From Longimicrobiales bacterium (GTDB lineage Bacteria; Gemmatimonadota; Gemmatimonadetes; Longimicrobiales; Gaopeijiaceae): a DNA stretch of 64,000 nt. This document shows positions 46,308 through 64,000 of this stretch, one piece after another (the stretch's first letter is position 1; every line of letters starts with the position of its first letter). The translations under genes and the position numbers were made by a program. Below the pieces are notes generated by a model, which was not told the DNA's origin, searched no databases, and worked only from the letters and a program-made list of their open reading frames with translations. The stretch is from NCBI GenBank assembly GCA_965203485.1, contig OZ241892.1:2368001-2432000 (forward strand), in the 5' to 3' direction.

Positions 46308-47849
46308 ATGGCGGCGGAGAAATGGAGCCCCAGCCGGGGCGGACGGATCGGACTCGGGCTCGGGGCGGCCACGTTCCTGTTGTTGCTCTTCGTGCCGGTC
46401 GCGCCGGACAACCTGCCTGCGAGCCGGATGGCCGCGGTGGCCGCGCTCATGGCCGTCTGGTGGGTGACGGACGCCATTCCGCTGTTCGCGACCGCGCTGA
46501 TGCCGCTGGCGCTGTACCCGTTGCTGGGGATCATGTCGGGCCACGACGTGGCGCCGATCTACTTCAACCACACGATCCTGCTGTTCCTCGGCGGCTTCAT
46601 GATCGCGCTCACGATGGAAAAGTGGGACCTGCACCGGCGGATCGCGCTCTCCATCATCCACGTGGTGGGCGGCGGGCCGGCGCGCATCGTGCTGGGCTTC
46701 ATGATCGCGGCCGCGTTTCTGTCGATGTGGATCTCGAACACGGCCACCGCGGTGATGATGGTGCCGATCGGCTTGGCGATCGCCCTGCGCGTGGAAGACG
46801 AGGCGGGCAAGCGGGCGGCCCGGCCCTTCTCGGTGGGGCTGATGTTGGGGATCGCCTACGGGGCGTCGGCGGGCGGGCTCACGACGCTGGTGGGCACGCC
46901 GCCGAACTTGGCGTTCGAGCGCATCTTCGGGATTCTGTTCCCGGAGGCGCCGGGCATCGGGCTGGGCCAGTGGATGGTGGTGGGCGTGCCCGTGGGGGCG
47001 ACGCTGCTGGCGGTGGCTTGGCTGCTGATCACGCACGTGCTCTTTCGGGTGCCCGCGGGCGTGACGGTGGACCGCCGAGTCGTGGAGCAGGAGCGGGCGC
47101 GCATCGGCAAGATGGCCTACGAGGAGAAGGTCGTCGCCGCCGTGTTCGCCGCCACGGTGGTCCTTTGGGTCCTGCGCACCGACCTCACGCTACCGTTCGG
47201 GACCATTCCAGGCTGGTCGGGGCTGCTGCCGTTCGGGAGCCTGATCGACGACGGCACCATCGCCATCGCCATGGCCAGCGTCCTGTTCTTCGTGCCCGCG
47301 CGAAATCGGGAGAGCGGCGCGGTGCGCGTCATGGGGCCCGACATCGTGCCCAGGCTGCCGTGGCACATCGTGCTGCTGTTCGGCGGCGGCTTCGCGCTCG
47401 CGGCCGGCTTTCAGCAGACCGGCCTGGCCCAGATCATCGGCAACCAGTTCACCGCGCTGGGAGGCGTGCCCCCGTTCGCGCTGATCCTCCTGGTGTGCGC
47501 GGCGATCACCTTCCTCACCGAACTCACGAGCAACGCCGCCACCACCGAGATGATCCTGCCCATCCTGGCCTCCGTCGCCGTCGCGACCGGCACGCACCCC
47601 CTGCTGCTGATGATTCCGGCCACGCTCTCGGCGTCCTGCGCATTCATGATGCCCGTGGCCACCCCTCCCAACGCCATCGTCTTCGGAACCGAACGCATCA
47701 AGATCGGCGACATGGCGCGCACCGGCATCTTCCTCAACATGGTCGGCGTGCTGGTGGTGGCAACCGTCGTCTACACGCTCGGGCTCTCCGTGTTCGGCAT
47801 CGATCCGGGCGAGCTGCCCACCTGGGCGGAGACGCTGGCGCAACCCTGA
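46308..47849 (+). CDS. SLC13/DASS family sodium:anion symporter
   Basis: SMWISNTAT, GTPPN, SNAAT, PVATPPNA; multiple TM segments. Confidence 0.95.
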   Translation: MAAEKWSPSRGGRIGLGLGAATFLLLLFVPVAPDNLPASRMAAVAALMAVWWVTDAIPLFATALMPLALYPLLGIMSGHDVAPIYFNHTILLFLGGFMIALTMEKWDLHRRIALSIIHVVGGGPARIVLGFMIAAAFLSMWISNTATAVMMVPIGLAIALRVEDEAGKRAARPFSVGLMLGIAYGASAGGLTTLVGTPPNLAFERIFGILFPEAPGIGLGQWMVVGVPVGATLLAVAWLLITHVLFRVPAGVTVDRRVVEQERARIGKMAYEEKVVAAVFAATVVLWVLRTDLTLPFGTIPGWSGLLPFGSLIDDGTIAIAMASVLFFVPARNRESGAVRVMGPDIVPRLPWHIVLLFGGGFALAAGFQQTGLAQIIGNQFTALGGVPPFALILLVCAAITFLTELTSNAATTEMILPILASVAVATGTHPLLLMIPATLSASCAFMMPVATPPNAIVFGTERIKIGDMARTGIFLNMVGVLVVATVVYTLGLSVFGIDPGELPTWAETLAQP

Positions 47850-47879
47850 TTCGCCGCTCGATGGAGCGTCGATGATAAC

Positions 47880-47932
47880 ATGGCCGTTTTTGACACATCG
47901 CGATTTCCCGTCGTTGCCGTTTCGATAGATGC
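47880..47932 (+). promoter_or_regulatory. Island element copy 1 (~53 bp, putative promoter/operator)
   Basis: ATGGCCGTTTTTGACACATCGCGATTTCCCGTCGTTGCCGTTTCGATAGATGC; starts 104 bp before the next ATG. Confidence 0.7.
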
Positions 47933-47983
47933 GCAAGCCACGAGGGCTCGCGAGTCGCGCGCACCAGACAAGGATAAGTTCCC

Positions 47984-48505
47984 ATGCGGACCATGCTCAA
48001 GCTGACTGCAGCTACGCTCGCCGTCACGGCCGCGATGTTGGCGTTTCCGTTGGCCAACACTTGGTCGTTGGACGCACAGTGCGTCGTTTGCAGCAAGACA
48101 GGCAATTGCGAGGACGGGAGAGGTGGATCGTCCTGCGTATCGGAGATGAACTCCGACGAAGACAAGCGTTGCACAGTCTCGGGGGGTTGCGAATGCACGA
48201 GAGTGGTACGACGCTGGTGGTTCGACACCGTCGTATGCACGCCGACCCTCGCCACTGCGTTGCCCTCTGTCGATGCTCGTCTCGTCGACTACGGTGGAAG
48301 CGAGATGGCGTTGCAACGCGTAGGACCGAGCCATTTCGCGGCAACCCAGTGCGGAGCGAACGACGACTGGGTGCTTCTTGCGCGCGAGTTGCCGGACGGC
48401 GAGTTGGTCGTCACCACGAATCCGATGATCATTCGCCTGCGACGCTGGACGCATGGCCTCGACTTCTCGCGGCAAGCTGACTCCCAAATAGCGACGCAAT
48501 CATGA
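47984..48505 (+). CDS. Secreted Cys-rich small protein (8 clustered Cys plus 1)
   Basis: Signal peptide, then C-x2-C-x5-C-x8-C-x11-C-x5-C-x-C-x13-C; stop overlaps next start (ATGA). Confidence 0.8.
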   Translation: MRTMLKLTAATLAVTAAMLAFPLANTWSLDAQCVVCSKTGNCEDGRGGSSCVSEMNSDEDKRCTVSGGCECTRVVRRWWFDTVVCTPTLATALPSVDARLVDYGGSEMALQRVGPSHFAATQCGANDDWVLLARELPDGELVVTTNPMIIRLRRWTHGLDFSRQADSQIATQS

Positions 48506-49557
48506 ATGTTCCCGCCAAGGCGGCGATGCTTTGCGCGCTGAGTTTGGCGGCGGCCGTTTCCTCGGCCGCCGCCGTCCAGCCGACGGCGCCGCATTCGTTC
48601 CAAGTCGGCGTTCGGGAGATCTGGAGCACCTACGGCGATCCAGGTTGGGGGGAGCCGATGGGCATGTTGCAATGGCCGGACGGCACCGTCTGGGTTGGCG
48701 ACTATCAAGTCTCGGAGGTTTGGGAGCTCTCAGCCGACGGCACAGAGCCGAGACGGGTTCTCCGTGAAGGCGAAGGTCCAGGCGAGCTGACCGGCGTGTC
48801 TTGGATCGTGCCGTATCGGGATGGCGGAGTTGTCGTGATGGATGCTCGGAACTTCCTGTTCTTCGGAGCAGACAAGGGATTCGTTCGGCAAGTGAGATGG
48901 AGCGCTTTCTCCGGAAGAGCCGGCTTGGTGGCAACTCCAAACGGCGATCTGGTCGTCAGCGGGGGCTCGATGCACGAAAACCACGAACTGGCGCACTTCG
49001 CCGTTCACCGCTTCCACAGGAAGCGCGGGTGGCACGTCAAGAGCTGGCACCCGGCCGCCGACCACCGACAGTGGGAAACGATTCGCCTTACGTCCGGCGG
49101 GCCGATCGCCCTTGCGAAGGATGGAGGACTCCTGGTGTCCGAGAAAGCGCCGTTCAGGATCACTCGCTACTCCGACTTGATGGGCAACGGAGCCCAACTT
49201 GTGATCGAGGACGAAGACGTGGTGTCCACATCGGAGCGGGACCGGGTGGTGACGTATACGCCCACCGGCTACAGCGTGACCACCGGTTGGACGCGGTCGA
49301 TCTTCGTCCACGAGATGGAGGGCGGTAACATTCTCAACGTCGTGAAGGTGTGGCCGGAGAATGTCGCCGCGGGCGCGAGCAACGAATGGCTCGTCGTGTC
49401 GCCGGACGGACGCATCTTGGCCCGAACACCCACCGAGAGGTCGTACGATGTCTGGAACGCAACGCCAGACGGCCATTATTTGGCGACGTATTGGGATCGC
49501 GACTCGTCGCAGACGGCGGTGGCCAAGCTGGAAGTGACAGTGGCGCCAAATCCGTGA
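48502..49557 (+). CDS. Secreted 6-bladed beta-propeller-type protein
   Basis: Signal peptide; REGEGPGEL motif; repeated blades (PDGTVWVGD, PNGDLVVS, KDGGLLVS, PDGRILA). Confidence 0.75.
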   Translation: MNVPAKAAMLCALSLAAAVSSAAAVQPTAPHSFQVGVREIWSTYGDPGWGEPMGMLQWPDGTVWVGDYQVSEVWELSADGTEPRRVLREGEGPGELTGVSWIVPYRDGGVVVMDARNFLFFGADKGFVRQVRWSAFSGRAGLVATPNGDLVVSGGSMHENHELAHFAVHRFHRKRGWHVKSWHPAADHRQWETIRLTSGGPIALAKDGGLLVSEKAPFRITRYSDLMGNGAQLVIEDEDVVSTSERDRVVTYTPTGYSVTTGWTRSIFVHEMEGGNILNVVKVWPENVAAGASNEWLVVSPDGRILARTPTERSYDVWNATPDGHYLATYWDRDSSQTAVAKLEVTVAPNP

Positions 49558-49694
49558 AGGCTATCCCGTCGTTATTTCCGGTGCTCGAGCAGGCGTTGGT
49601 AGGGCCGGGCGTTTCGCGGAGGCGGCTCTCGGAGCGCTCGCGTGTCGGCCGAATCCGCGCGTTCGCGCCGATGCACGTACCGCAGGGAACTCCG

Positions 49695-49747
49695 ATGGCC
49701 GATTTTGACACATCGCAATCTGCCGTCGTTGCAGTTTCCATTGATGC
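49695..49747 (+). promoter_or_regulatory. Island element copy 2
   Basis: ATGGCCGATTTTGACACATCGCAATCTGCCGTCGTTGCAGTTTCCATTGATGC; 46/53 identical to copy 1, no gaps. Confidence 0.7.
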
Positions 49748-49838
49748 CAAGGCAGTGCGCGGGCTGTCTGCTCACCCTATAGGAGCCGCGAGCGTCCGAC
49801 GGCCTCGCGAGCCATGGACCCGCAAGGGAGACAATCCC

Positions 49839-51050
49839 ATGTCCACTACGATGCGCGCAGGGCGGGATGGCGGCCGTGGGCCGTCTCGGTGCTGGCGGCG
49901 CGAGCGCCTTCGCCGCGTCGCTTTGCTCAGCTACGGGCGTCCGGTTTTGCCCGCCTTCGTCATAGCTGTCTTCGCGGTTCTTGGGTGCCAGCGCTCGAAA
50001 GCCCCCGATGTCGCCATCGACGAGCTCGCCATGGACATCGCGCCGTTCGCTACCGTGGTCGGCCTCCGGCCAAGCGAGACCGCCTTGGCGCTCCCGCCCC
50101 ACGAGACCGTCGCATCCTACCCCGCGAACTCGCCCCGCTATCACAGTACCGAACTAGCGGTGGCGGCCGACGGCACCATCGCGATAGGCGACCCGCGTTC
50201 CTGCTCGATTCTCCTTCTGGCCGACACCGGTCGGCACATGCGCCGAATCGAGGCATGCGCCGACACGGGGCGCGGGATCGATGATCTCTTTTGGGTCGAC
50301 CGAGACCTGCTGGGTCTCTTCGACATGCGCTCGAGGGAAGTGCGGCTACTTGGCCGCCACGGCGAGGACGCGGGCCGGGTTCCGGTCGAGCCGGTGCAGA
50401 GCGGAGTGATCACCGCCGCCTTCCCGCTCCCCGCCGACAAGTCGATTCTTGCGGCTGTCGGCTTCTTCTCGCTATCTGGACGTGAGCGCTTCGTTCAACT
50501 GCACGACTCGGGCGGTACGCCCAAGGCGGCATTCCTCTCCGCTCCGGCAGTAGCGTTGCGCCCCGACCTCCGCCTCGCGTTTGGCGTGGAGCTTTGCCTG
50601 CGACAGTCGCCCCGCCCCGGCGCCGCGCGTTTTCTCGCAATCAATCGGTGGGCGCACGACGTCGTCATGGCCGTGCCGGACGACTCGGCCGTCGCTTTCA
50701 GAAGCCTCGTGCCCATGGACGCCTACATGTATCGGGACGAGAACGACTTGCTCGCACCCTCGCCGGGCCGGGTCGCCGTGGCCTGCGGCGAAGACTCTGG
50801 CCTTGCGCATCGCACAGTTCTGCGCAGTAGACCAGATGGAGGAACAGAAACCAACGGCGTACTCGATTGGATCTCGTTTACCGGCGGCTTGATTGCCCGG
50901 TTCGATCTCGGTTCTGCGCCATTGTTCGCACGGTCGAGGGAAATAGGGATCGACAGCGCCGACCGCGCCTACGCGCTGGTTCGTGATTCCTCGGACTTGC
51001 GCGTAATACGACATCCGCTTGCGCGTCCGCCTGAAATCCACGAAAAGTGA
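49839..51050 (+). CDS. Lipoprotein, divergent beta-propeller-type
   Basis: GGAG RBS, start MSTTMRAGRDGG; lipobox VLGC; blades such as LAVAADGTIAIGD and IGIDSADRAYAL. Confidence 0.7.
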   Translation: MSTTMRAGRDGGRGPSRCWRRERLRRVALLSYGRPVLPAFVIAVFAVLGCQRSKAPDVAIDELAMDIAPFATVVGLRPSETALALPPHETVASYPANSPRYHSTELAVAADGTIAIGDPRSCSILLLADTGRHMRRIEACADTGRGIDDLFWVDRDLLGLFDMRSREVRLLGRHGEDAGRVPVEPVQSGVITAAFPLPADKSILAAVGFFSLSGRERFVQLHDSGGTPKAAFLSAPAVALRPDLRLAFGVELCLRQSPRPGAARFLAINRWAHDVVMAVPDDSAVAFRSLVPMDAYMYRDENDLLAPSPGRVAVACGEDSGLAHRTVLRSRPDGGTETNGVLDWISFTGGLIARFDLGSAPLFARSREIGIDSADRAYALVRDSSDLRVIRHPLARPPEIHEK

Positions 51051-51060
51051 GGACATGAAT

Positions 51061-52701
51061 ATGAAAGCGGTGCCATGGATGGTCGCTGCGACGACATGTT
51101 TGTCGGTTGCGGCTATACAGACCTTTAGACTTCGGAATCACGCAACGACTGTCCTTGAACTGACTCGCGAGAACCGCAGTCTCGAAGCCGTTGAGAGCGC
51201 CTACCGGGAGACAGCGCTCCGAGTCATCCGTGCCGAACTCGAGTCGGACTCCTTGGCGTTGGATCAGGGCACCCACGGAACCGTGTACATGATCGTGGAT
51301 ACGCAATGCCCGGCTTCCAAAGACGCTGTTCTCGCACTGAAGTACCGGGGCACGGCTATGCCGGTAGTCGTTGCCTCCTACCTGGACGGTCCTGACCGTA
51401 TTCGGCAGTGGCTGCTGGACCTCGGCGCCGACTTTGCAGTCATGCCTGTTCCTGTCCACCAGACGCCGTTGAAGAGCATGCCTCGCGGGATCACGCCCAT
51501 CTACCTGGAACTCGACGAGGTCGGTCCCATCGACGTTCACGTGGGAAAGCCGAAAGAAGAGTGGTTCCGGCAGGATCCGCAAGTGCCGGAGAGGGAGGTC
51601 CGCGAAGTGTTTCGGCTTGGCGACGGGACCGACGTGCCCGACTGGGCGGCATTCGTCCGAGAGCCCGATCTAGCCCTGGACGCGGCGGGCCGGCTCTACG
51701 CGCGGCCGCTGGGCGATGATCCGAGAGTACGCGTCATTGACGAGAACGGGGGCTTTGTCCGATACATCGGGCGGAAAGGCAACGGTCCGGCGGAGTTCAC
51801 GACGATCGACGACATGGGGTTCGCGGCCGACACCTTGTGGTTGCGGGACTGGCCGCCGGACCGCACGTCGTTCTTCGATTCGGCCGGGACGCACCTGAAG
51901 ACGGAGACCACTGTGCCTGCGTACGCGGGGCTGGAGCCCGGCCACGACGGAGAAACGATTCCGCTGCGGGACGGCTGGGCGCTCTACACCGCACCCCGAA
52001 CCACTACAGAGTACGGACGAGTGCGCGTTCCGTTGATGGTGGGGATTCGTGAATTGACGGAGAAACGCGACACCGTGGAGTTTCAGCTCAGGCCCACGGG
52101 CATGATCATACGCGGTGTCGGAACGTTTCATTGGGAGCCCGTCACGCTGTCGCCTCTTGTCGTGCCGCTGGCGCGCGGCAACGGCATCGCGGCCGCAAGT
52201 TGGACGGCAGACCGACCCGGCGAAGTCGTGCTTCGCCGCGTCCGCTTCGACGGGTTCCTCTCGAGGGAAGACACGCTCCGCTTTTCCGTTGCGGCGATAT
52301 CTCCCGAGGCACGCGATCGCATCGTCGCCGACGGCATGGAAAAGGCCAAGGGGCCCTACGAGTTCCACCGCAAGCGCTTCGGCGGCACGCCAAACGACTT
52401 GCGCGATGCGGTCATCGAGGGACTGGCGTTGCCCAGCCACTATTCGCCGTTGCAGGACATGTTCGCGACACCGGAGGACCGGATTTGGGTGCGCGCCACC
52501 GCTGTTGAAGACCAGAGCGACGGGGACTGGTTCGTCGTGGGTTCGGACGGCGTCGTGAACTTCCGCGTTCGCCCACCGTCCGGCGTGACCTTCAAAACGG
52601 CTCACGGAGATCGGGTTTGGGGAGTGGGCCAGGGCTACCTAGATACGCCGTACATCGCCTTGTACGAGCTATCTCAACCACCACAAGGAAAGGAAGGATA
52701 G
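51061..52701 (+). CDS. Fusion of N-terminal thioredoxin-like domain (CxxS) and 6-bladed beta-propeller
   Basis: TM/signal, VYMIVDTQCPAS and ITP; then LALDAAGRLY, IGRKGNGPAEF, C-terminal GDRVWGV...LDTPYIALY. Confidence 0.72.
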   Translation: MKAVPWMVAATTCLSVAAIQTFRLRNHATTVLELTRENRSLEAVESAYRETALRVIRAELESDSLALDQGTHGTVYMIVDTQCPASKDAVLALKYRGTAMPVVVASYLDGPDRIRQWLLDLGADFAVMPVPVHQTPLKSMPRGITPIYLELDEVGPIDVHVGKPKEEWFRQDPQVPEREVREVFRLGDGTDVPDWAAFVREPDLALDAAGRLYARPLGDDPRVRVIDENGGFVRYIGRKGNGPAEFTTIDDMGFAADTLWLRDWPPDRTSFFDSAGTHLKTETTVPAYAGLEPGHDGETIPLRDGWALYTAPRTTTEYGRVRVPLMVGIRELTEKRDTVEFQLRPTGMIIRGVGTFHWEPVTLSPLVVPLARGNGIAAASWTADRPGEVVLRRVRFDGFLSREDTLRFSVAAISPEARDRIVADGMEKAKGPYEFHRKRFGGTPNDLRDAVIEGLALPSHYSPLQDMFATPEDRIWVRATAVEDQSDGDWFVVGSDGVVNFRVRPPSGVTFKTAHGDRVWGVGQGYLDTPYIALYELSQPPQGKEG

Positions 52702-52703
52702 AG

Positions 52704-52949
52704 ATGAGCTGGAAAAAACTGATCAACGGACTCGCCCCGGTTGCGGTTGTCGCGTGCGGCTTGGGTCTCCTGGCTGCTCACCCAGCGCCTCCCGGCGCGT
52801 TTGCGGCTTGCGAGTTCAGCGTGGGTCCAAATCACGCGACTTGTTGTGCGTGCAACAAGAAGAGCTGCATCACCGTTGAGCACAACGGCGTGGCGAGTTG
52901 CACATTCGAGTTCTGTTCGAACACGACCTGCAACATCGGTCCGTCTTAG
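52704..52949 (+). CDS. Secreted 8-Cys peptide (81-aa precursor)
   Basis: Strong AGGA-rich RBS; signal ending AFA; C-x10-CC-x-C-x4-C-x10-C-x4-C-x4-C. Confidence 0.8.
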   Translation: MSWKKLINGLAPVAVVACGLGLLAAHPAPPGAFAACEFSVGPNHATCCACNKKSCITVEHNGVASCTFEFCSNTTCNIGPS

Positions 52950-52952
52950 CCT

Positions 52953-53371
52953 GGCTCCTTCCCTGTTTCGGCGGGCGCCGTAGGATGGAACGGGGGTACG
53001 GCGTGACTCTCGGAGCGAGGAGAGCGGATGGAGATGCGGGAGTGAGTGGAGCGGCCTGGGGCCGGAGTGGCGAATCAAGCGCGTGGACGAGGATTCGGAG
53101 CACCGGGAGGCGCGGGTGGCACTGGCGCGCAGGGCAGGCTCGCCGCTACCGTGCTCGGAGTGCGGGGGCTGGACGCCTGGGAGCGTCGAGCGGACGTCCC
53201 AGGCCTGGGGTCTACCCCGGACATTTCCACTTTGGTACGACAGCCTCCTTGCGTCCCCCGGGGTCGCCCCGCACTGGCTACCGGGCTACCTTGGCCGTGA
53301 CATCGGCCAAGGACGGCACGGCAGCCTGGAGACCACGCCGTGCTACCCTTCCCCCGTTTCGGAGGAAAGCC
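52953..53371 (+). mobile_element. Degenerate ISL3-family IS remnant
   Basis: One frame reads LGPEWRIKRVDEDSEHREARVAL...GSPLPCSECG, resembling an ISL3 transposase N-terminal zinc finger; ends GGCTCCTT...GGAAAGCC resemble ISL3 GGCTCT-type inverted repeats; no target-site duplication seen. Confidence 0.45.
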
Positions 53372-53372
53372 G

Positions 53373-54053
53373 TTGAAGTCAAGGGAACCGCCGACCGGAA
53401 CGACGGACGCGCCCTGCGACGGGCCACCGCCGAACGACGCGGGGGTGCCACCGTCCGACGATGTGGGAGCGCACAAGAAGGCGCCGACAACTCCGGATAC
53501 GCCTCCCAAGATCGACCTGGCGCGATTGCACGCCCGGGACCCGGCTCTGCTCAGGGAATTGGTCGAGGAGATCACGCCAAGCATCCGGGCGGCGATCCGC
53601 TCCTTCGCGACCGACGACGACGACGCGGAAGACCTCGTTCAGGAATGCTGGATACACATCATGGCCAAGCTGGATTGGTTCCGCCGGGACAGCTCCTTCC
53701 GAGCCTGGGCGACGGCCGTGAGCCGAAACTACTGCCGACAGGTCTGGAGGACGAGGAAGAGACGAGCGATCGAGACCGTGCACATCGACGAAGCGCCGGA
53801 GCCCGCGTCCGGCGAGCTGAACCCGAGCGAGGCGCTGGAACGGAGCGAACTGCGGCTCGCGGTTCAGAAGGCGCTGGCCCGGTTGCCGGACCGGGAACGC
53901 GACGCGGTAGTGATGAAGCTGATGGAGGGCCGCTCGACATCCTACATCTCCGGGCGCCTTCGCGTCTCGGAGCCGGCCGTGCGCAAGCTGGTTCGAAGGG
54001 CCTCGTTCAAGCTGAAGGAAGTGCGCGAACTGCGCGTCTTGTGGTTGCCGTGA
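53373..54053 (+). CDS. ECF RNA polymerase sigma factor
   Basis: Region 2 DAEDLVQECW, SFRAW; region 4 LARLPDRERDAVVM...VRKLVRRA; GGAGG before TTG 53373. Confidence 0.92.
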   Translation: MKSREPPTGTTDAPCDGPPPNDAGVPPSDDVGAHKKAPTTPDTPPKIDLARLHARDPALLRELVEEITPSIRAAIRSFATDDDDAEDLVQECWIHIMAKLDWFRRDSSFRAWATAVSRNYCRQVWRTRKRRAIETVHIDEAPEPASGELNPSEALERSELRLAVQKALARLPDRERDAVVMKLMEGRSTSYISGRLRVSEPAVRKLVRRASFKLKEVRELRVLWLP

Positions 54054-54075
54054 GGGCGGTCGTCCGCACCGCGCG

Positions 54076-54130
54076 ATGGCCGTTTTCGACACATCGAGAA
54101 CCACGACCGTTGCCGTTCACTAATAGATGC
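54076..54130 (+). promoter_or_regulatory. Island element copy 3
   Basis: ATGGCCGTTTTCGACACATCGAGAACCACGACCGTTGCCGTTCACTAATAGATGC (55 bp), immediately after the ECF sigma gene. Confidence 0.7.
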
Positions 54131-54223
54131 CGGAGCGGTCCGTCGCTCACCTGTGGCGGCCACGCGGGCGATCGCCGGGGTCCGGCCGAAAGCGCGAGCC
54201 AAGCGGAGCGCAAGGAGACGATC

Positions 54224-54310
54224 ATGTCCACTACGATGCGCGCAGGACGGGATGGAGGCCCCGTATCTGGACCATCCAATCGGCACCGTTGGCCAGCAAG
54301 CTTCCGTTGA
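54224..54310 (+). CDS. Putative 28-aa leader ORF (MSTTMRAGRDGG...)
   Basis: AAGGAG RBS; first 12 aa identical to gene 49839; its TGA overlaps a TTG in the AraC frame. Confidence 0.45.
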   Translation: MSTTMRAGRDGGPVSGPSNRHRWPASFR

Positions 54311-55144
54311 CTGCACGTCGTACGCCACCGCCACCGTTGCTGGCTCTCATGGGCAACGCAACTCTTCGAAGGCGGTTGCGCATGGCCATCGACTACGGTC
54401 CGGCGTCCCGAGTCATTGGGCCGACGATCTTTGCTTCCGGCTGGCGGGAACTCCGCGAACTCGTGCGACGCCACGATCGTTCGCCTGCGGTCGTCGACCT
54501 TGGGTTTCGAACCTCGGCGGACCCTCCTGACGCCTGCTCAGTCCGTGTGCTACGCGGCACTTCGGTGCCGCTGATCACCTGCGCTCGATCAAACGGTGTG
54601 GGCCGAACCGCACTGGAGGACCACGCGCCGCGCGGCGTATGCATAGCGGCCGCATGGCGGCCGACCGCGGACGACAGCAGCGGAACCGTCACGGCGGACG
54701 TGCTAAGGGCGGCTGACGTGCACACCGTCAACGGCTTACTGGCAGGCGTTGCAAAGCGAACGCGTGAAGAGGTCGAACGGATTTTTTCGGCCGTTCTCGC
54801 CATCGCGGTCCGCCGGTCGACGGTGCGGGAGCTGGCTGCGGCCCTGGCGCGGTCTCAACGTTCGCTCCGACGGCACTGCACGGAGCTTTGCATTCCGCCG
54901 CCGAAAAGGCTTCTTTCCTTGGGGCGAGTCTTCACCGTCGAGCGCCTCGCCGAGTGGAGCGGACAGCCGGCAGGCGCGGTTGCGCTGGCGCTCGGGTTCT
55001 CGGACTACGCGAATTACCGCCGACCTGGTTCGCAACGCGCTGGCCGACGCGGCCTCACCGGTTCCGCATCGCGTCGGGCTGGCCTACGTGAGACGATTCA
55101 TCCTGCAAGTTCTTGCGGCTAACGCAGGCCGTCGCACCCGGTGA
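54307..55144 (+). pseudogene. AraC-type HTH regulator with +1 frameshift near 55024
   Basis: TVRELAAALARSQRSLRRHC and AVALALGFSDYANYRR; continuation LVRNAL...GLAYV lies in the next frame, whose stop (55144) overlaps the next GTG. Confidence 0.7.
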
Positions 55145-55575
55145 GGTCGGTCTTCCCCGGAAGGGACAGCATCAAATGTCGATCCGATCGGATGTTTCTT
55201 TGGCTGGTGATTGCCGGTGCCGTCCAAGTCGGCATTGTGGCCACTCGCGTGTTCGACGGCCAGAGCACTCCGAGGGCTTCATTGTCCGTAGGCGATACGT
55301 TGCGGTCTTTGCCAGGCGCCACGCTTGCGGACCAATCGGCGACCGTGGACATCGCTTCGGATTCGGTTTTGGCCACCGTGCTGTACGTCTTCCATCCGGA
55401 CTGCGCTCATGGACTCGCGGTGGCGCCGACGTGGGCCGAACATTTTGCCGGCACTTCGGCCAAGGATTCGCTTGTCCGCCGGATAGCCGTAACCAGCGCG
55501 CCGCCCTCAGTTTCGGCGAGTTACGCCAAGCGCTTCGGTTGGAGCGTTGCGTTGCTGGAGATAAGGATCGCGTGA
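55141..55575 (+). CDS. Membrane-anchored redoxin/thioredoxin-fold protein, degenerate (CAHG) and apparently C-terminally short
   Basis: TM segment, LSVGDTL, VLYVFHPDCAHGLAVAPTW; no cis-Pro (TP) strand before the stop. Confidence 0.65.
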   Translation: MRSVFPGRDSIKCRSDRMFLWLVIAGAVQVGIVATRVFDGQSTPRASLSVGDTLRSLPGATLADQSATVDIASDSVLATVLYVFHPDCAHGLAVAPTWAEHFAGTSAKDSLVRRIAVTSAPPSVSASYAKRFGWSVALLEIRIA

Positions 55576-55600
55576 ACCCTGTTTTCGACAGGAGATGGAG

Positions 55601-55801
55601 ATGAAGATTACTCGAACTATCGTCGTCACCGCTGTCAATGTCTTACTTCTTCCGCTCACGCTAGGATCGTTCACCATCGGCCATCAACGCGCCGTAGGGC
55701 TGTTTGATTGTTGCCGCGAATCAGCGAATGGTTCTTATTGTTGCCGCAACTGCTGCTGGACCACTCGTGACTGTGACGGACCCGGGGATTGCAATGTCTG
55801 A
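55601..55801 (+). CDS. Secreted 8-Cys peptide (CC-x8-CC-x2-CC-x5-C-x5-C)
   Basis: GGAG RBS; hydrophobic N-terminus; three vicinal CC pairs. Confidence 0.8.
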   Translation: MKITRTIVVTAVNVLLLPLTLGSFTIGHQRAVGLFDCCRESANGSYCCRNCCWTTRDCDGPGDCNV

Positions 55802-56981
55802 TCGTGCGGCGCGTGCGAACAGCTTTTCATGGCGTGTCGGCGCAATCTTCTTGTCGCTGGCCGTCTTGTACGGACTCTATGCGCTTCAAGCGCTCGACAA
55901 TTTCTCCGCCAGCGTGTCCATGCCGAGGAGACTGATCATGACCGCCGCTTCCGCCAGCGTTGCGTTGGCGATGCTGGTTCCGGTGGCGACCTTCGCGGCG
56001 GCTCTTCACAGATTCGACCTGTTCGACGAAACGACGCTGGGCAGCAGGCGACGCGATTGGACCTTGCTTGCTCTGGCGGGGCTCGGCTCCTACGTGTCGA
56101 GCACCATCGGTCCTCTGGCTTCGGCCGCCGGAACGTTTTCCGATCGCCCGGTGGCCGGCATCGCAGCGATGATCCTGGTCCCGGTGGCGATAGGCATCTT
56201 CTCGATCGTCGCCGGGATTGCAGGCGCGCTGGTCGGCCAGCTCACCGAGTGGATGATTCCCTGGCGGCGCCAAGTCGCGAGGTGGGCGGCATGCCTGGCG
56301 CTGCTTTTCTTCTTTTGCGCCGCTGTGGTGGCCGTGGACGCGCTGGTTGCAAGGTACGGGTGGCCGGTCGCGTGGTTGTTCGTGCCGGGGCCGCTGGCAG
56401 TTCCGGCGGCCGCCACGTGGGTCATGTTGCGCGTTCAGGGCTACCGCGTTCGCGACATGCTGCCGGTGCCTGTTGCGGGCACCAGGCGCCGTCCGCTGGG
56501 ACCCGAGGCCCTGGACCGGCTTGCAACGACCGTCGCCAGAGCCGATTGGGAGCTGGCGGCTCCCGTCGTCGAGGGCAAGGCCGAGGCGGGCCAACCTCGC
56601 ACGGCGTCCGGGCACGAGAGCGAGATGGCCGCCTTCTTGAGTGGGCTCCGACATGTCGCTCTCCCAGACCTGAAGGTGAGCGACGCCCAAGTGGAGAAGA
56701 TCGTCCACGCGGTCGTCGCGGCGGCTCCCGACTCTTCCCCCGCGTCGGAACCCAGTTCGCAACGCCTCGTTGCCCGGCAACGTCGGCTGGATCTCGCCAC
56801 CGTCGCAGAACTGGGCGTGTCCTGGGCGAGCCTTGCCGTGGGCCTAGTGCTCCTGGGAGCCGTTGGCGGCGTGCCGCCGAACGTCGGAGCCGCCGCGGGC
56901 ATCGGACTGCTGGGCAGCGTCGCCGGCATCTGGATCAACCGCCGGCGCCTGTCGCTGTCCTCGCCGACGACGACCACTTGA
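55794..56981 (+). CDS. Multi-pass membrane protein of unknown function
   Basis: About 8 hydrophobic segments; ATG overlaps the peptide gene end. Confidence 0.75.
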   Translation: MSDRAARANSFSWRVGAIFLSLAVLYGLYALQALDNFSASVSMPRRLIMTAASASVALAMLVPVATFAAALHRFDLFDETTLGSRRRDWTLLALAGLGSYVSSTIGPLASAAGTFSDRPVAGIAAMILVPVAIGIFSIVAGIAGALVGQLTEWMIPWRRQVARWAACLALLFFFCAAVVAVDALVARYGWPVAWLFVPGPLAVPAAATWVMLRVQGYRVRDMLPVPVAGTRRRPLGPEALDRLATTVARADWELAAPVVEGKAEAGQPRTASGHESEMAAFLSGLRHVALPDLKVSDAQVEKIVHAVVAAAPDSSPASEPSSQRLVARQRRLDLATVAELGVSWASLAVGLVLLGAVGGVPPNVGAAAGIGLLGSVAGIWINRRRLSLSSPTTTT

Positions 56982-57089
56982 AGCGGGACGGCCCGCAAAC
57001 TACTGGCTTCCGTCAAGTGCAGAAAGACGGATAGGCGAGAGTCGGGGTCGTGCGGTCTGCGTCGCCGAGCGGCTCCGGCAAGCGATGGC

Positions 57090-57895
57090 ATGGCGATAAG
57101 CTACTCGTTCTCGACAACAAGAACAGGAGACTGACCATATTCGGCGCGGACGGCCAGCTCATGTCCTCCCAGCGACTGCCGACCACGGAGTTGCCGTGGT
57201 GGTTGTGGACGCGCTGATCGCACGGCGCGGCTTGGGGGGCGGCGTAGTTGTTCGTGGTTGCCGGAGACGCCGATTCGATGTTGTTGCGGCCGGGGAGCTG
57301 GGCGTGTCCTGGGCGGGCATTGTCGCAGGTCTGTTGCTCGGGGGCATCGGTCGGCGGCTTGGCGCCCAACGTCGGGGCCGTCGCAGGCGTCGGATTGCTG
57401 TTCCGTCGCCAGCGTCTGGATGGCTCGTCGCCCGACGGCGCGCATGCAACCGACAGCAATGCTGTTCCGCTTGCGCCGGTGATGGCCATTTTCGTTGTGG
57501 CAGCCACCTGTGGCGAGCAAGTGGACAACACCGGCACTTTGGCCACCAGGGGCGACACTATAGGACGGGGTCGTGCATATCCACAATGCCGGAGTCGCGC
57601 TGACGACGGCTTCGGCCCGCGGACCCTTGCTGTTCCGCCGGGCACGACGAAGCAGGCCCCACGGGTGGCACCGGATGGCCGCCTGTGGGTCGAAGTCCTC
57701 CCCATCGGCGGCAACCGATGGGAAGTCTTCGATCCCGACGGGGGACGTTGCTGGGCATGTTGCCCTCTCGGGATCGGAGCCGGCTCGGCCACCGGCGCTC
57801 GGCCCAGGATCGCTTGTTCGCGATCGTTCGCCAGGACAGTCTGGAGCTCGACGATGTAGAGCTCTACCGTGTGGTGTGGTGGAACTTCGATGACT
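57090..57895 (+). pseudogene. Mosaic of decayed fragments of island genes
   Basis: 57090-57190 matches 59043-59143; 57196-57256 matches 56325-56384; 57271-57400 matches 56784-56912; ~57660-57893 is a frameshifted propeller C-terminus. Confidence 0.8.
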
Positions 57896-57898
57896 GGC

Positions 57899-57951
57899 AT
57901 GGCCAGTTTTGACACATCGAGACTCGTCCTCTCTGTCATTCTCATGAGTGC
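57899..57951 (+). promoter_or_regulatory. Island element copy 4
   Basis: ATGGCCAGTTTTGACACATCGAGACTCGTCCTCTCTGTCATTCTCATGAGTGC; starts 103 bp before the next ATG. Confidence 0.65.
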
Positions 57952-58001
57952 GAGGATGTCAGATCGCATCCATTCAACTCCATATCTGAAGGGAGCCGGA
58001 A

Positions 58002-58238
58002 ATGAAGAACGCCATCCGCAGGATTGGCCGCGCCTTGGCCGTGACGACCGCGTTCGCCCTGGTCGCTCTGACACCGTCGGAGTCGCCGCTGGACGGCATT
58101 AAGCAAAAGGCATGCCGCTCGGTCGGATGCCCCGACGAGACCGACCTCCACTGCATATCGACGACCATCTCGGTTGAAACCCCGTTCGTCAGCGGTGAGG
58201 TGAGCGTGACCTGTTACGAGCCCGCCCGACCAAAGTGA
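58002..58238 (+). CDS. Secreted 4-Cys peptide A
   Basis: GGAG RBS; signal peptide; AC-RSVG-C-x7-C-x19-CYE. Confidence 0.8.
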   Translation: MKNAIRRIGRALAVTTAFALVALTPSESPLDGIKQKACRSVGCPDETDLHCISTTISVETPFVSGEVSVTCYEPARPK

Positions 58239-58313
58239 CCCGCTTCGGCAAATTCCGAGAGTGCCGCTGAAGCACGAATGGCATCACAAGTCACAACCAA
58301 TAAGGAACTGGTA

Positions 58314-58592
58314 ATGGTCATTGTTGCTAGAATTCTACCGACGGCTCGGCTTGTCAGCTTGGCAACGGGATTCATCGTTGCGACGCCGATGATGCTGAGT
58401 GATGTCCGAGCGCAACAAGAGGACCCCGAACAAGAAAATGTCGACGCGTGCGAATCCCTTGGTTGCGCCGGCGGCGATCTTGTTTGCGCAGAGTATGACG
58501 AGACAAGAATCGTAATGACGATCGATCTCGGCGATATTGTTATCGAATTCATCGAGACGGAGACAGTCATATGCTACGAGAGTCGCAACTGA
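58314..58592 (+). CDS. Secreted 4-Cys peptide B (paralog of A)
   Basis: TAAGGA RBS; signal ending VRA; AC-ESLG-C-x6-C-x28-CYE. Confidence 0.8.
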   Translation: MVIVARILPTARLVSLATGFIVATPMMLSDVRAQQEDPEQENVDACESLGCAGGDLVCAEYDETRIVMTIDLGDIVIEFIETETVICYESRN

Positions 58593-58696
58593 CGGCGTCG
58601 GAGATGCACATGTCGGCAGATGCGATTCCAGTGGCGCCGAATGGCGGCCTGATGAAGAGAGACCCCAGGAGAATGGTGACGAAGATGAGGAGAATG

Positions 58697-59767
58697 ATGA
58701 CGAAGATGAACACGTTCCAACATCGGTGGCTACCGGCCGTCATGTTGCTCGCTCGCATCTTGGGTGCGATTTGCGTCCTGGCGGCCGGCGGAGCCGAGGG
58801 CCAAGCCACGCAACGCAATTGGCTTTCGCAACCGGTGCTCGACTTCTCGGTGGAGGACCCAGATGGGACGGTGCTCGGGAACCCGCTTCGCATCACGGCC
58901 AGTCCGGGAGGGGGCTTTGTCGTAAGCGACTGGGCAGACTTCGCCGTCCAAGCGTTCTCGCCTCGGGGCGAGCCGCTCTGGCGGTTCGGAAGGCAGGGCC
59001 GGGGGCCGGGCGAGTTCCTGCAGTTCATGCACATGGAATACGATGGCGACAAGCTACTCGTTCTCGACAACAAGAACAGGAGGCTGACCGTACTGAGTGC
59101 GGACGGCCGCCTCGTGTCCACCCAACGACTGCCGGCCACGCAGATGTCGCAGGTGCTGCCGGCGTTCGGCTCCAGCCGCAGAGTGCTCAGGCCCTTCATA
59201 GGTGGCCGCGACACGCTATGGGTGTCGGTGTCCGAGTCAGGCAGGGTGGCTTCGGCGGCCCCCATGCCGGGCAAAGTCGCTTTTCAGGACGACATCGTGG
59301 GGGAGTCCTTCACGAGCCGGGCCGGCGCCGGTGCCGTTGTCGCCTTTAGATGGTCGAGCCAGCTAGTGCTCTTGGACGAGAGCGGCGGCGTCAGAACCGT
59401 TGCCGAGGGCATCGAGCGCGTGGCGTTCCCCAAGATGAAGAAGTACGAAGTGGATCCCAATATCGAGGGCGTCACAAAGCTCGTAGCCCGGCGGGTGGAC
59501 CCGAAGGCGACACCGGCCGCCCGCTCCGTAGCGGCCGACAGCCGACGAGTGTTCGTTCTCTTTCGCGGCCAGACGGAATACCGAGACAGGATCGTCGACA
59601 CGTACGACGCCCGCCTCGGAGACTATCGAGGCTCCATTCTATTGCCGAACAAGGTCGCCGACATCGCCATGCTGGCGGATGGCCGCCTGGCGACGCTGGA
59701 GACGGACTTCTTCCCCATCGTGCGGGTCTGGCATATCGCGGATGAAACAGCCGGACGGCATCCATGA
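58697..59767 (+). CDS. Secreted 6-bladed beta-propeller-type protein
   Basis: Signal ending AEG; WRFGRQGRGPGEF; IVDTYDARLGDYRGSILLP; start approximate. Confidence 0.8.
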   Translation: MTKMNTFQHRWLPAVMLLARILGAICVLAAGGAEGQATQRNWLSQPVLDFSVEDPDGTVLGNPLRITASPGGGFVVSDWADFAVQAFSPRGEPLWRFGRQGRGPGEFLQFMHMEYDGDKLLVLDNKNRRLTVLSADGRLVSTQRLPATQMSQVLPAFGSSRRVLRPFIGGRDTLWVSVSESGRVASAAPMPGKVAFQDDIVGESFTSRAGAGAVVAFRWSSQLVLLDESGGVRTVAEGIERVAFPKMKKYEVDPNIEGVTKLVARRVDPKATPAARSVAADSRRVFVLFRGQTEYRDRIVDTYDARLGDYRGSILLPNKVADIAMLADGRLATLETDFFPIVRVWHIADETAGRHP

Positions 59768-60243
59768 ACGGGGCTGAGAATGCCATTCCGATGCGTTCCA
59801 CATCATCTCGTCTCGGCTTGTTCGCCGCGCTGGCTGTCGTCGGGTGCGCCAGCGCCGAGGCTACAAAGAAGCGCGAACTGACTCTGTCGGAAGTTGCGGG
59901 GACCGAGACGGGCATAGTCGTCTTGGCGCATCCGTTCAGTTGCGCTCTGTCGGGGGAAGACGCTCGCCGCTTGAACTTGGCCGGGACAGACGGTCGATTG
60001 GCTGTTCGGGTCTTCTTCCTGGCGTCGTCCGCCGATAGCTTGGCCGTCGAGCGTGCGGCCACCGACTTGGGATTGGAGGTGCCGTACGCGTCGCTGTCCG
60101 CAGAGCGCGCCGCCACTCTCTTCCGGGCCACGGGGATGGGAACGCCCATGTTCGCCCTCATGCGGCACGGTCGTATTGTTGCGATGGTGGGCAACGTTGG
60201 CGCCGACTACGCGCTGGACATCATCGACAGCATCTTGCGTTGA
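59764..60243 (+). CDS. Small lipoprotein, probable degenerate thioredoxin fold
   Basis: Lipobox VVGC; IVVLAHPFSC (single Cys); GTPMFALMRHGRIV; ATGA overlap with the propeller gene. Confidence 0.65.
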   Translation: MNGAENAIPMRSTSSRLGLFAALAVVGCASAEATKKRELTLSEVAGTETGIVVLAHPFSCALSGEDARRLNLAGTDGRLAVRVFFLASSADSLAVERAATDLGLEVPYASLSAERAATLFRATGMGTPMFALMRHGRIVAMVGNVGADYALDIIDSILR

Positions 60244-60305
60244 GAGCGACTGCCCCCGGGGCAAGTCCTTCCGCGACTTCGTACACGATGCCGGAAGCTG
60301 AACCG

Positions 60306-60725
60306 CTAGTCGCCCGCGTCCGCGGCGAGCACGGCGCGCAGGCGGGCTTCCTCCAATCCCCAGTCGGCCAGGGCGCGTTGCGATTCCTGATCGTCGGCGC
60401 CGGCGACGGCGATCAGGAGATGGACGCTGGCCGTGGGGGCGCCGGTGGTTGCGCCGAGTTCCACGGCGGCGGCCAGGACGTCTTGGGAGGCCGCCGAGAA
60501 CGGGATGTGGTTCTCGTGCGTGACCGGCAGGTCGCGCAGGGTGGACGGCAGGTCGTCCAGGTCGAGATCGGCCCGCCGGACGAACTCGGCGAGGGCCGGG
60601 TCGCGCTGGGACGCCACGCCCGCCAGCAGATGCCGGGGCTCCACCAAGGCGGCACCGTCCCGGGCGGCCGCGGCGGCGGAGCGGTTCAGGGCGTGGACGG
60701 CGTCCTCCGCCAAGTTGACGCTCAC
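60306..60725 (-). CDS. Clp N-terminal (Clp_N repeat) domain protein
   Basis: VEPRHLLAG, IPFSAASQDVL...SVHLLIAV; GTG overlaps upstream stop. Confidence 0.8.
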   Translation of the reverse strand: MSVNLAEDAVHALNRSAAAAARDGAALVEPRHLLAGVASQRDPALAEFVRRADLDLDDLPSTLRDLPVTHENHIPFSAASQDVLAAAVELGATTGAPTASVHLLIAVAGADDQESQRALADWGLEEARLRAVLAADAGD

Positions 60726-63140: not shown

Positions 63141-63515
63141 CTAAACCGCTGGAGCAGCAGACTGCGGCCGTGGGTCAACGAGTCGCAACCGTGTTGATGG
63201 CGAAGACATAGTTGGTGCCGACGCCGTCATCTCCGCTGGTTTCCAGTCGAGGACATGCCAAGTCACAGTTGGACATTCAGCGCGCGGAAGTGGTGGATCG
63301 ATTCCGTCTTCCAACATAGAGCCGATGAACATCTTCTTGGCTTCTTCCAGATGCAAGCACGCCTGTAGGTGCGTATCGCCATGGCTCTCGCAACCGGGAA
63401 GTTCGGTGATCCGAGCCACGTAGCTCTTGGATCCATCCGTGCAGATTTCCGGGGATACTGTCACGCTGTACGACAGTCCGAGATAAAAATCAAGCATCTT
63501 CATTTGGCCGTTCAT
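63141..63515 (-). CDS. hicB: HicB family antitoxin
   Basis: YVARITELPGCESHGDT...EEAKKMFIGSMLEDGIDPPLP. Confidence 0.88.
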   Translation of the reverse strand: MNGQMKMLDFYLGLSYSVTVSPEICTDGSKSYVARITELPGCESHGDTHLQACLHLEEAKKMFIGSMLEDGIDPPLPRAECPTVTWHVLDWKPAEMTASAPTMSSPSTRLRLVDPRPQSAAPAV

Positions 63516-63714
63516 CTTTTGCCTTTCTCTTGGCGGTTTCGATCAGTCGAACTGCAGTGGCGATATAGCCGACAGGAAGCGATCTGTGCCTGGTAACTGA
63601 GGCTCCCAACATCGGAAACCGCGGAGACCAGTAGATTGTGTGTTGGCCGCCTTCGCGCTTGAGAAACCCAAAGGATTTGTATAGTCTTGGGGCCGCCTTG
63701 GCCATTCTGACCAT
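63490..63714 (-). CDS. hicA: HicA-like toxin (possibly 5'-truncated)
   Basis: LYKSFGFLKREGGQHTIY...LPVGYIATAVRLI; overlaps the hicB start. Confidence 0.65.
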   Translation of the reverse strand: MVRMAKAAPRLYKSFGFLKREGGQHTIYWSPRFPMLGASVTRHRSLPVGYIATAVRLIETAKRKAKDERPNEDA

Positions 63715-63758
63715 TATGACCAAAATACGCCGGCAGGCCCGGCGCGCGTCAAGGGAGG

Positions 63759-64000
63759 CTACAGCAGGGTCGGCTGGCGCACGTCGGGAACGCGGGTTCG
63801 GGCGGCGAGGTGGTTCTGGATGTATTCGAGGGTCGCGCGTTCTTCGGAGTCGCCGGGGGCCAGCTCGATCAGCGCCTGCACGACCTTGGCGAAGAGCTCG
63901 TGGCGCCAGAGGCCGCGGATGTCCAGGTAGGCGTTGACGCGGGACTGCTCGCCGGTCTTCCAGGAGCTGCATGAGCTTGTGCACGCAGTCGACGAGGGGC
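63759..64000 (-). pseudogene. C-terminus of DUF1156-like DNA methyltransferase, with a frameshift near 63963
   Basis: PLVDCVHKLMQL / WKTGEQSRVNAYLDIRGLWRHELFAKVVQALIELAPGDSEERATLEYIQNHL (one extra C between the parts); family recognised from memory. Confidence 0.55.

Follow-up and report, generated by a model that had tools for sequence, protein, structure and literature searches.

This work concerns a short repeated element in a 64,000-nucleotide stretch of the genome of a Longimicrobiales bacterium (assembly GCA_965203485.1, contig OZ241892.1, positions 2,368,001 to 2,432,000), called here the window and numbered from its first letter. Four copies of the element stand ahead of gene groups in a genomic island, and each copy is probably a composite promoter, read jointly by an AraC-type protein and a dedicated extracytoplasmic function (ECF) sigma factor encoded by the same cassette, as judged from comparative sequence analysis. 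ECF sigma factors are usually seen as self-sufficient switches restrained by anti-sigma factors, whereas sigma70 is the usual partner of AraC activators. In the mechanism proposed here, the AraC-type protein would bind a 16-bp box with the sequence TGGC-N7-GACA and bring in RNA polymerase loaded with the ECF sigma factor of its cassette; this sigma factor would read a pentamer abutting the box at -35 and a CGTT-like block at -10. Binding and activation are predictions of this model, as is a transcription start near element position 52.

The four copies lie on the plus strand at the positions reported by a first-pass annotation made from the letters of the window (47880, 49695, 54076 and 57899), within an island of lower GC content (47850-60243). 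The remark that the element was not seen in the core region holds for the whole genome: with at most two mismatches to the 21-nt core, the four copies are the sole matches in 3,557,016 bp. When up to three mismatches are allowed, chance would give 0.03 matches in the window, and none of 100 shuffles reached four. Copies 1 and 2 are identical at 46 of 53 positions, as first stated; the remaining pairs share 30-35 of 53 positions overall but 18-20 of the first 21, where most of the identity resides. The element begins with the 16-bp box (positions 1-16), followed by the abutting CATCG pentamer (17-21), then 14-15 bp and the CGTT-like block. Two contact blocks are found one helical turn apart in the box, TG[GTA]C at positions 2-5 and GAC[AC] at 13-16, the latter directly before the pentamer. 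Two details of the first description had to be revised. The variable spacer, given as about 10 bp, measures 14 nt from CATCG to the TG block, and the closing TGC, counted as part of the element, is unconserved across the motif family, so that the informative unit is about 44 bp rather than 53. The copies and the two putative regulator genes are as follows.

47880..47923, + strand: copy 1; box 47880-47895, putative -35 pentamer 47896-47900, putative -10 block 47916-47923; 31 bp past the stop codon of an SLC13 gene, ahead of genes 47984 and 48502, with a predicted start site near 47931
49695..49738, + strand: copy 2; box 49695-49710, putative -35 49711-49715, putative -10 49731-49738; ahead of genes 49839, 51055 and 52704, and possibly of the ECF gene too via read-through
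54076..54119, + strand: copy 3; box 54076-54091, putative -35 54092-54096, putative -10 54112-54119; 23 bp past the ECF stop codon, ahead of araC, a thioredoxin-like gene, a Cys peptide gene and a membrane protein gene
57899..57942, + strand: copy 4; box 57899-57914, putative -35 57915-57919, putative -10 57935-57942; ahead of genes 58002, 58278, 58697 and 59764
53373..54053, + strand: cassette ECF sigma factor, with sigma2 and sigma4
54307..55144, + strand: AraC-family regulator, with an AdpA-like double helix-turn-helix (HTH) and, in the model of an ortholog, a receiver-like N-terminal fold

The distances to the first ATG are those originally given, 104, 144, 148 and 103 bp, to the ATGs at 47984, 49839, 54224 and 58002. 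The third of these begins a frame of only 28 codons, a remnant copy of the first part of the 49839 gene, and the stop of this frame overlaps the probable TTG start of araC (54307). The statement that the element heads every island module needs correcting for the ECF gene at 53373, which has no copy of its own and is preceded by an ISL3-type remnant. An ortholog (locus L042 of genome G002) places the element at the same post-ECF position as copy 3. The TGA of the box is often the stop codon of the upstream gene, as at 57910-57912 in the window and at the araC 3' ends of loci L006, L007, L044, L057 and L062; the putative promoter therefore overlaps the end of araC at these loci.

The same genome contains four further cassettes combining an ECF and an araC gene, five in all, each with its own variant of the element at fixed spacing. 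The signal repeated in each cassette is a 16-bp box followed, after 18-20 bp, by a GC[G/A]T block. A family model detects 16 sites genome-wide at 21 bits or more, 11 of them seeds of the model, and none in two control genomes (reversed and complemented). The non-seed sites include that of the fifth cassette and two further orphan sites, located before small Cys-rich peptide genes far from the cassettes. Orphan elements of the B type likewise precede genes for small exported Cys-containing proteins at a distance from their own cassette (C1 187360(-), 592209(-) and 2451217(+)). The orphan elements suggest a trans regulon and mobile promoter-peptide units. Elements resembling the variant of another clade were also observed upstream of cassette ECF genes (C1:12608(-); L053), which makes cross-regulation between ECF/AraC pairs possible.

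The closest relatives of the AraC protein are mostly found in Longimicrobiales or Gemmatimonadetes metagenome-assembled genomes and in Ca. Palauibacter records. The AraC clade is present in 45 of 314 genomes of the family, and with more distant relatives included, AraC matches occur in 118 of 401 genomes across the phylum, up to eight per genome; the latter tally takes in the unpublished genome G281, used nowhere else. Two metagenome scans confirmed no relative. After removal of duplicates, 70 non-redundant close loci separate from 20 outgroup loci with a support of 100 in a quick tree. An ECF gene lies within 5 kb at 63 of the 70 close-clade AraC loci and at 1 of the 20 outgroup loci, some outgroup stretches being shorter than full length in this count. 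The ECF and AraC trees, compared by eye, agree clade for clade. The outgroup itself (L147-L166) is a phylum-wide set of receiver-like AraC proteins with almost no neighbouring ECF, many of which carry a conserved FPSGSAFRN second helix.

A more direct connection between the two proteins is provided by gene fusions. A single ECF-AraC reading frame is found at 16 of the 70 loci, and one belongs to the window's own genome (C1:3416070-3417488, L010:11071-12486; approximately 456-472 amino acids), where it is accompanied by three element copies of its own. Among five fusions searched against Pfam, sigma2 and HTH_18 were both detected in all five and sigma4 in three; at L052, where sigma4 is broken, the fusion may result from a frameshift. 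Database proteins place the fusion in independent assemblies, ten clusters at 50% identity spanning both halves, and the fused or separate state changes at least three times on the tree. A structure model of a fusion (predicted local distance difference test 78, predicted template modelling score 0.53) contains folded domains, in an arrangement that carries no confidence.

The element accompanies these loci in clade-specific forms, with the family consensus RTG[GTA]C-N7-GACM, YMYCR, 14-15 nt, NGC[GA]TYW. The exact window motif is nearly absent from relatives (one match, with one mismatch, in the 40 searched) because each clade has its own variant. A model built from the 12 sites of the own genome nevertheless scores 12 bits or more right after araC at 10 of 65 other close-clade loci, and at none of the 65 reverse strands or 20 outgroup loci. 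A de novo repeat search recovered the same layout independently in L044, L070, L059, L062 and L084. Iteration of the model gave 69 sites on the cassette strand and 16 on the opposite strand in 1,096 kb of close loci, versus 2 in 230 kb of outgroup. In 15 held-out loci, kept from 35 after 20 duplicates were dropped, 14 sites were found at 11 loci and none in reversed controls; 14 of these 15 loci have an ECF gene. A start codon lies 75-150 bp downstream at 51% of 57 sites, as compared with 15% of random positions.

The linked protein belongs to the AraC family on the basis of its double HTH (HTH_18), which a frameshift breaks in the window copy. Among PDB structures the AraC profile matches AdpA best, whose structure reportedly has base contacts at G2 and C4 of its consensus. 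Arg262 and Arg266 of AdpA read DNA directly (PMC4847859, PMC8994273). Among 226 columns, the equivalent of Arg266 ranks first against box base 3: Arg accompanies G at 76 of 77 sites, other residues accompany T at four of four, and each loss of this Arg is thus paired with a G to T change, a held-out site adding one more case. The Arg262 equivalent ranks second and third of 226, against box bases 5 and 4 respectively. L067, a fragment, was dropped; the covariation set omits the plus-strand mirror or cross-clade matches of L053, L054, L103, L111 and L116, and alignment A4 omits L052, L116 and L180. A pair of AraC half-sites 32-33 bp apart was also considered and set aside, as it fits copy 1 only.

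The downstream half of the element can be examined in the same way against the ECF sigma factor, a protein of about 200 amino acids at 53373 with sigma2 and sigma4 only and no NCBIfam subfamily at cut-off among the matches listed. When the GGAAC...GTA promoters of the own genome are used as a ruler, the CATCG pentamer falls at the -35 position within 1 nt; it stands 17-19 nt before the GT of the -10 block, against 17-18 nt in the GGAAC promoters. In RpoE, Asn84 sets the -12 base, Arg171 the -31 base, and Gly168, Thr169, Ser172 and Arg173 the -34 base (Todor et al., bioRxiv 2020.06.23.168245). The Asn84-equivalent column ranks first of 179 against the -12 base, Ser or Asp being associated with G at 42 of 43 sites and Met, Lys or Ala with A at 9 of 10, and this rule holds in 9 of 10 held-out loci. 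Three or more of the four residues reading -34 are present in 10 of 12 stand-alone ECFs and in none of 60 cassette ECFs, Arg171 being retained in 38 of these 60. The ECF of the window also lacks these G/T/S/R residues of sigma4.2 and has Gln at the Asn84 position. The contacts lost are those on the side abutting the box, a parallel to the class II complexes of Rob, in which sigma4 is pushed off the -35 region by the activator (PMC9178005).

Several results weigh against the composite promoter. Six of the 70 close loci have no ECF in the stretch examined, about 20 of 65 close-clade loci have no site on the cassette strand, and 4 of the 15 held-out loci have no site. The iterated model is circular, and about 20 anchors of the covariation set were picked by eye. 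When the tree is taken into account, the Arg266 position offers three independent pairs (p 0.25), the Arg262 position two (p 1) and residue 84 nine, with about 5.3 concordant, none discordant and a median p of 0.0625. The AraC column R75 matches the -12 base no less well than residue 84 does (0.42 versus 0.40), and for box bases 4-5 some ECF columns equal or exceed the AraC residue, so that shared ancestry alone can give scores of this kind. The Arg171 equivalent fails to predict C at position 20 (rank 36 of 179; C at 44 of 49 Arg sites and at 17 of 24 others). The general box, TGTC-N7-GACA, is palindrome-like and would also suit an unlinked dimeric regulator, and the element is well conserved in this strain despite its broken araC. 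The covariations of the AraC box and of the ECF -12 base are accordingly suggestive and underpowered (p about 0.25 and 0.06).

Among the alternative explanations, the best placed, itself unlikely, keeps the same two proteins and the same element but lets the ECF fire the promoter alone, AraC repressing or only modulating it. Co-occurrence, covariation and the place of the box beside -35 are compatible with either sign of regulation; the retention of the box next to a frameshifted araC would suit this reading, and the pentamer is clade-specific, so that sigma4 may still read it. Against this stand the disappearance of the -34-reading residues from all 60 cassette ECFs, the repeated fusion of AraC to sigma, which suits a helper better than a repressor, and the overlap with -35, which is the layout of class II activators (PMC9178005).

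Somewhat less probable still is an AraC-activated promoter serving another sigma factor, either sigma70 or a core ECF that reads GGAAC, the cassette ECF having other targets. A perfect TTGACA is present in three window copies, and the GGAAC...GTA motif, whose -10 block shares a GT with that of the element, lies upstream of 21 of 62 cassette ECF genes. The TTGACA differs from the family consensus, however, and a scan of 47500-60500 for TTGACA-N16/18-TAnnnT gave no site; the -12 base appears to track residue 84 of the cassette ECF, and the element is absent from outgroup AraC loci without ECF. Genome-wide, the GGAAC motif stands ahead of core genes, and the window ECF gene is not preceded by it; for these reasons a cassette ECF reading it was also set aside. 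In the own genome, GGAAC-N17-GTA occurs at C1:12426(-), 175529, 383635, 408950, 1661958(-) and other positions, with 12 sites at 19 bits or more against 3 in controls and no enrichment at lower cut-offs. Its presence before some cassette ECF genes suggests a master ECF placed above these cassettes.

The main idea of the first-pass annotation, in which the element is an ordinary ECF promoter whose -35 region is unusually long and AraC is a bystander, appears very improbable. It accounts for two blocks at fixed spacing, a CGT-like -10, the position before operons and the ECF linkage. The box, on the other hand, ends about 22-23 nt before the -12 base, farther than the 16-18 nt of ECF spacers; its two contact blocks are 11 bp apart, it appears to covary with AraC arginines, and it belongs to a system in which ECF-AraC fusions exist. 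The ECF promoter and the AraC operator, first offered as alternatives, both survive as parts of one element; what falls is the upstream block as the -35 of the ECF, since positions 1-16 are too far upstream and appear to covary with the AraC recognition helix, leaving CATCG as the putative -35 and the CGTT-like block as the putative -10.

The other early suggestion, an attC-like site shuffling cassettes, can hardly be entertained: copies do head modules, gene order varies between strains, orphan element-plus-peptide units exist elsewhere and the fold of copy 4 is better than that of shuffled sequence (z -1.8 and -2.4), but this is not so for copies 1-3 and no hairpin is shared, the island has no integrase (two PF00589 genes lie more than 500 kb away), the sequence appears to covary with regulator residues, and the strain comparison proposed for finding module breakpoints put none inside a copy among the joints listed (6 of 59: 49560, 53442, 54071, 51522, 52896 and 54318). 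An Rfam scan gave one chance-level match. The related strains used for this comparison were taken from one marine and two sponge metagenome runs. In X11, copy 1 is missing from one low-depth contig, on which the end of SLC13 is joined to the first peptide gene; in X5, a contig carries the element with unrelated sequence on either side. Both arrangements are consistent with a portable promoter.

On the basis of the geometry, the clade variants, the near-constant linkage, the repeated fusion and the covariation, the composite promoter would therefore imply a private regulon for each ECF/AraC pair. Such a regulon would comprise exported Cys-rich peptides, beta-propellers and thioredoxin-like proteins, together with the pair's own genes, which would make the feedback positive, and with orphan peptide genes at other places in the genome. 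A broader proposition, which we consider evenly balanced, is that these are obligate two-part sigma systems of sponge-associated Gemmatimonadota: an ECF lineage that has lost half of its -35 reading would depend on a dedicated AraC protein with a receiver-like domain, to which it has repeatedly been fused, giving a sigma factor that contains its own 16-bp DNA reader; the pairs would have diverged to mutually insulated promoter codes, each turning on its own set of exported Cys-rich peptides and beta-propellers.

Both halves of the element are of known kinds, and ECF promoters needing activators are already known (algD, PMC3592444). The closest likeness is class II activation by the monomeric AraC/XylS proteins Rob, MarA and SoxS (PMC9178005), with a box of approximately 16-20 bp and two contact blocks set against or over -35; as there, sigma4 would be contacted by the activator, to which the recognition of the upstream sequence would pass. 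The partner of Rob is sigma70, whereas here it is likely a dedicated, co-encoded ECF with an ECF-type -10, sometimes within one polypeptide. AdpA of Streptomyces (PDB 3W6V) shares the HTH, as the best structure match, and the S-x-R-T-x-x-R helix, and the window box starts with TGGC like the AdpA consensus TGGCSNGWWY, mismatching it at the G of position 7. AdpA is, however, a global regulator with a DJ-1/PfpI domain, while AraC proteins of the window type have a receiver-like N-terminal fold. The bipartite -35/-10 structure, the CGT-like -10 and the autoregulatory position are those of ECF promoters (Todor et al., bioRxiv 2020.06.23.168245; Casas-Pastor et al., PMC7826278), whose Asn84 rule may hold here as well. 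The elements add a 16-bp box to this plan, and the cassette ECFs the loss of the -34-reading residues. The Pseudomonas algD promoter depends on an ECF, AlgT/U, and also needs the activators AlgR, AlgB and AmrZ, but none of these activators is of the AraC type, and AlgU, a global ECF, can do without them at other promoters (PMC3592444). Promoter recognition is split between two co-encoded proteins in Bacillus SigO-RsoA (PMC8103513). That system separates sigma2 from sigma4, whereas the cassette ECF is complete and has AraC as an additional, separate DNA-binding partner. The algD sigma factor and its activators are not known to form a dedicated co-evolving pair or to be fused.

The word AraC occurs 0 times in the main text and the searched part of the supplement of the ECF classification (PMC7826278). 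No report of an ECF-AraC pair or fusion was found in the literature searched, which covered openly available papers, including the main text of Todor et al., and part of the Casas-Pastor supplement. Within these limits, the family of AraC-ECF elements is real and previously unremarked. The elements lie ahead of genes for exported proteins in marine Gemmatimonadota and likely act as promoters. If true, a dedicated, co-evolving and sometimes fused ECF-AraC pair would be a regulatory class absent from the classification text searched. The matched natural variants of protein and promoter (81 sites in 55 loci, plus 14 held-out sites) lead to testable predictions at the residue level and could furnish natural AND-gate promoters for synthetic biology. 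The motif also marks a putative regulon in uncultured bacteria, both marine and sponge-associated, made up of exported peptides and propeller proteins that are uncharacterised.

The island encodes exported Cys-rich peptides, six-bladed propeller-like proteins and thioredoxin-like proteins beside the ECF sigma factor (53373) and the AraC-family protein (54307). The remaining features are listed below.

47984..48505, + strand: small exported Cys-rich protein of 173 amino acids, export predicted from a hydrophobic N-terminus; no Pfam or NCBIfam family
48502..49557, + strand: exported NHL / six-bladed beta-propeller-like protein; NHL match below cut-off, paralogs elsewhere in the genome
49839..51050, + strand: probable lipoprotein of 403 amino acids; no family, propeller-like by inspection only
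51055..52701, + strand: protein of 548 amino acids; DUF5128 six-bladed propeller match below cut-off
52704..52949, + strand: Cys-rich exported peptide of 81 amino acids
52953..53170, + strand: multi-copy remnant, its closest copy within the start of an ISL3-type transposase
55192..55575, + strand: membrane-anchored thioredoxin-like (HxxC) protein, 127 amino acids versus 184-194 in homologs; homologs in 26 of 70 cassette loci
55595..55801, + strand: conserved peptide, anchored in the membrane and bearing three Cys-Cys pairs; 31 of 70 cassette loci have a homolog
55791..56981, + strand: conserved membrane protein, multi-pass, containing a cytoplasmic insert; 38 of 70 cassette loci have a homolog
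58002-58238 and 58278-58592, + strand: two small exported Cys-containing proteins
58697-59767, + strand: DUF5128 six-bladed beta-propeller
59764-60243, + strand: redoxin-like lipoprotein, at the island end

The C-terminal part of the 51055 gene (from 51522) is a separate block in related strains. The conserved Cys-Cys peptide and the membrane protein accompany about half of the cassette loci and are for this reason candidate inputs of the system. The AraC N-terminal domain, modelled as a receiver-like fold, has a near-invariant Asp after strand 3. The membrane protein at 55791 could by conjecture be a sensor or an anti-sigma factor. The cytoplasmic insert encoded in the 55595-56981 region recalls an anti-sigma helix motif; an anti-sigma domain received no support from Pfam or Atlas, which gave no family match.

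In the window araC, one extra base near 55024 cuts the second recognition helix. The frameshift is taken to be real in this strain because X2 contigs match the window exactly across 55024, even if X2 may share the window's source; the X5 and X6 strains do not have the extra base. It likely silences or weakens the four copies in this strain, unless a paralog cross-activates them. Other signs point the same way: the ECF gene is preceded by the ISL3-type remnant, the thioredoxin-like gene is short, and fragments at 57090-57860 duplicate parts of the 58697 propeller gene and the end of the membrane-protein gene. Taken together, the cassette looks recently damaged and may be decaying. The X6 strain lacks the fourth module or has it replaced.

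A few further observations concern the surroundings. The eukaryote-like repeat proteins of sponge symbionts are a lead only for the role of the exported payload. A HicB-like antitoxin (Pfam PF15919, match 63144-63515) with a HicA-like frame upstream occupies 63141-63984 on the minus strand. Genes that resemble SGNH hydrolases by inspection are located near two cassettes, at 40829-42028 (-) in the window and at C1 ~3405418-3406479 in the own genome.

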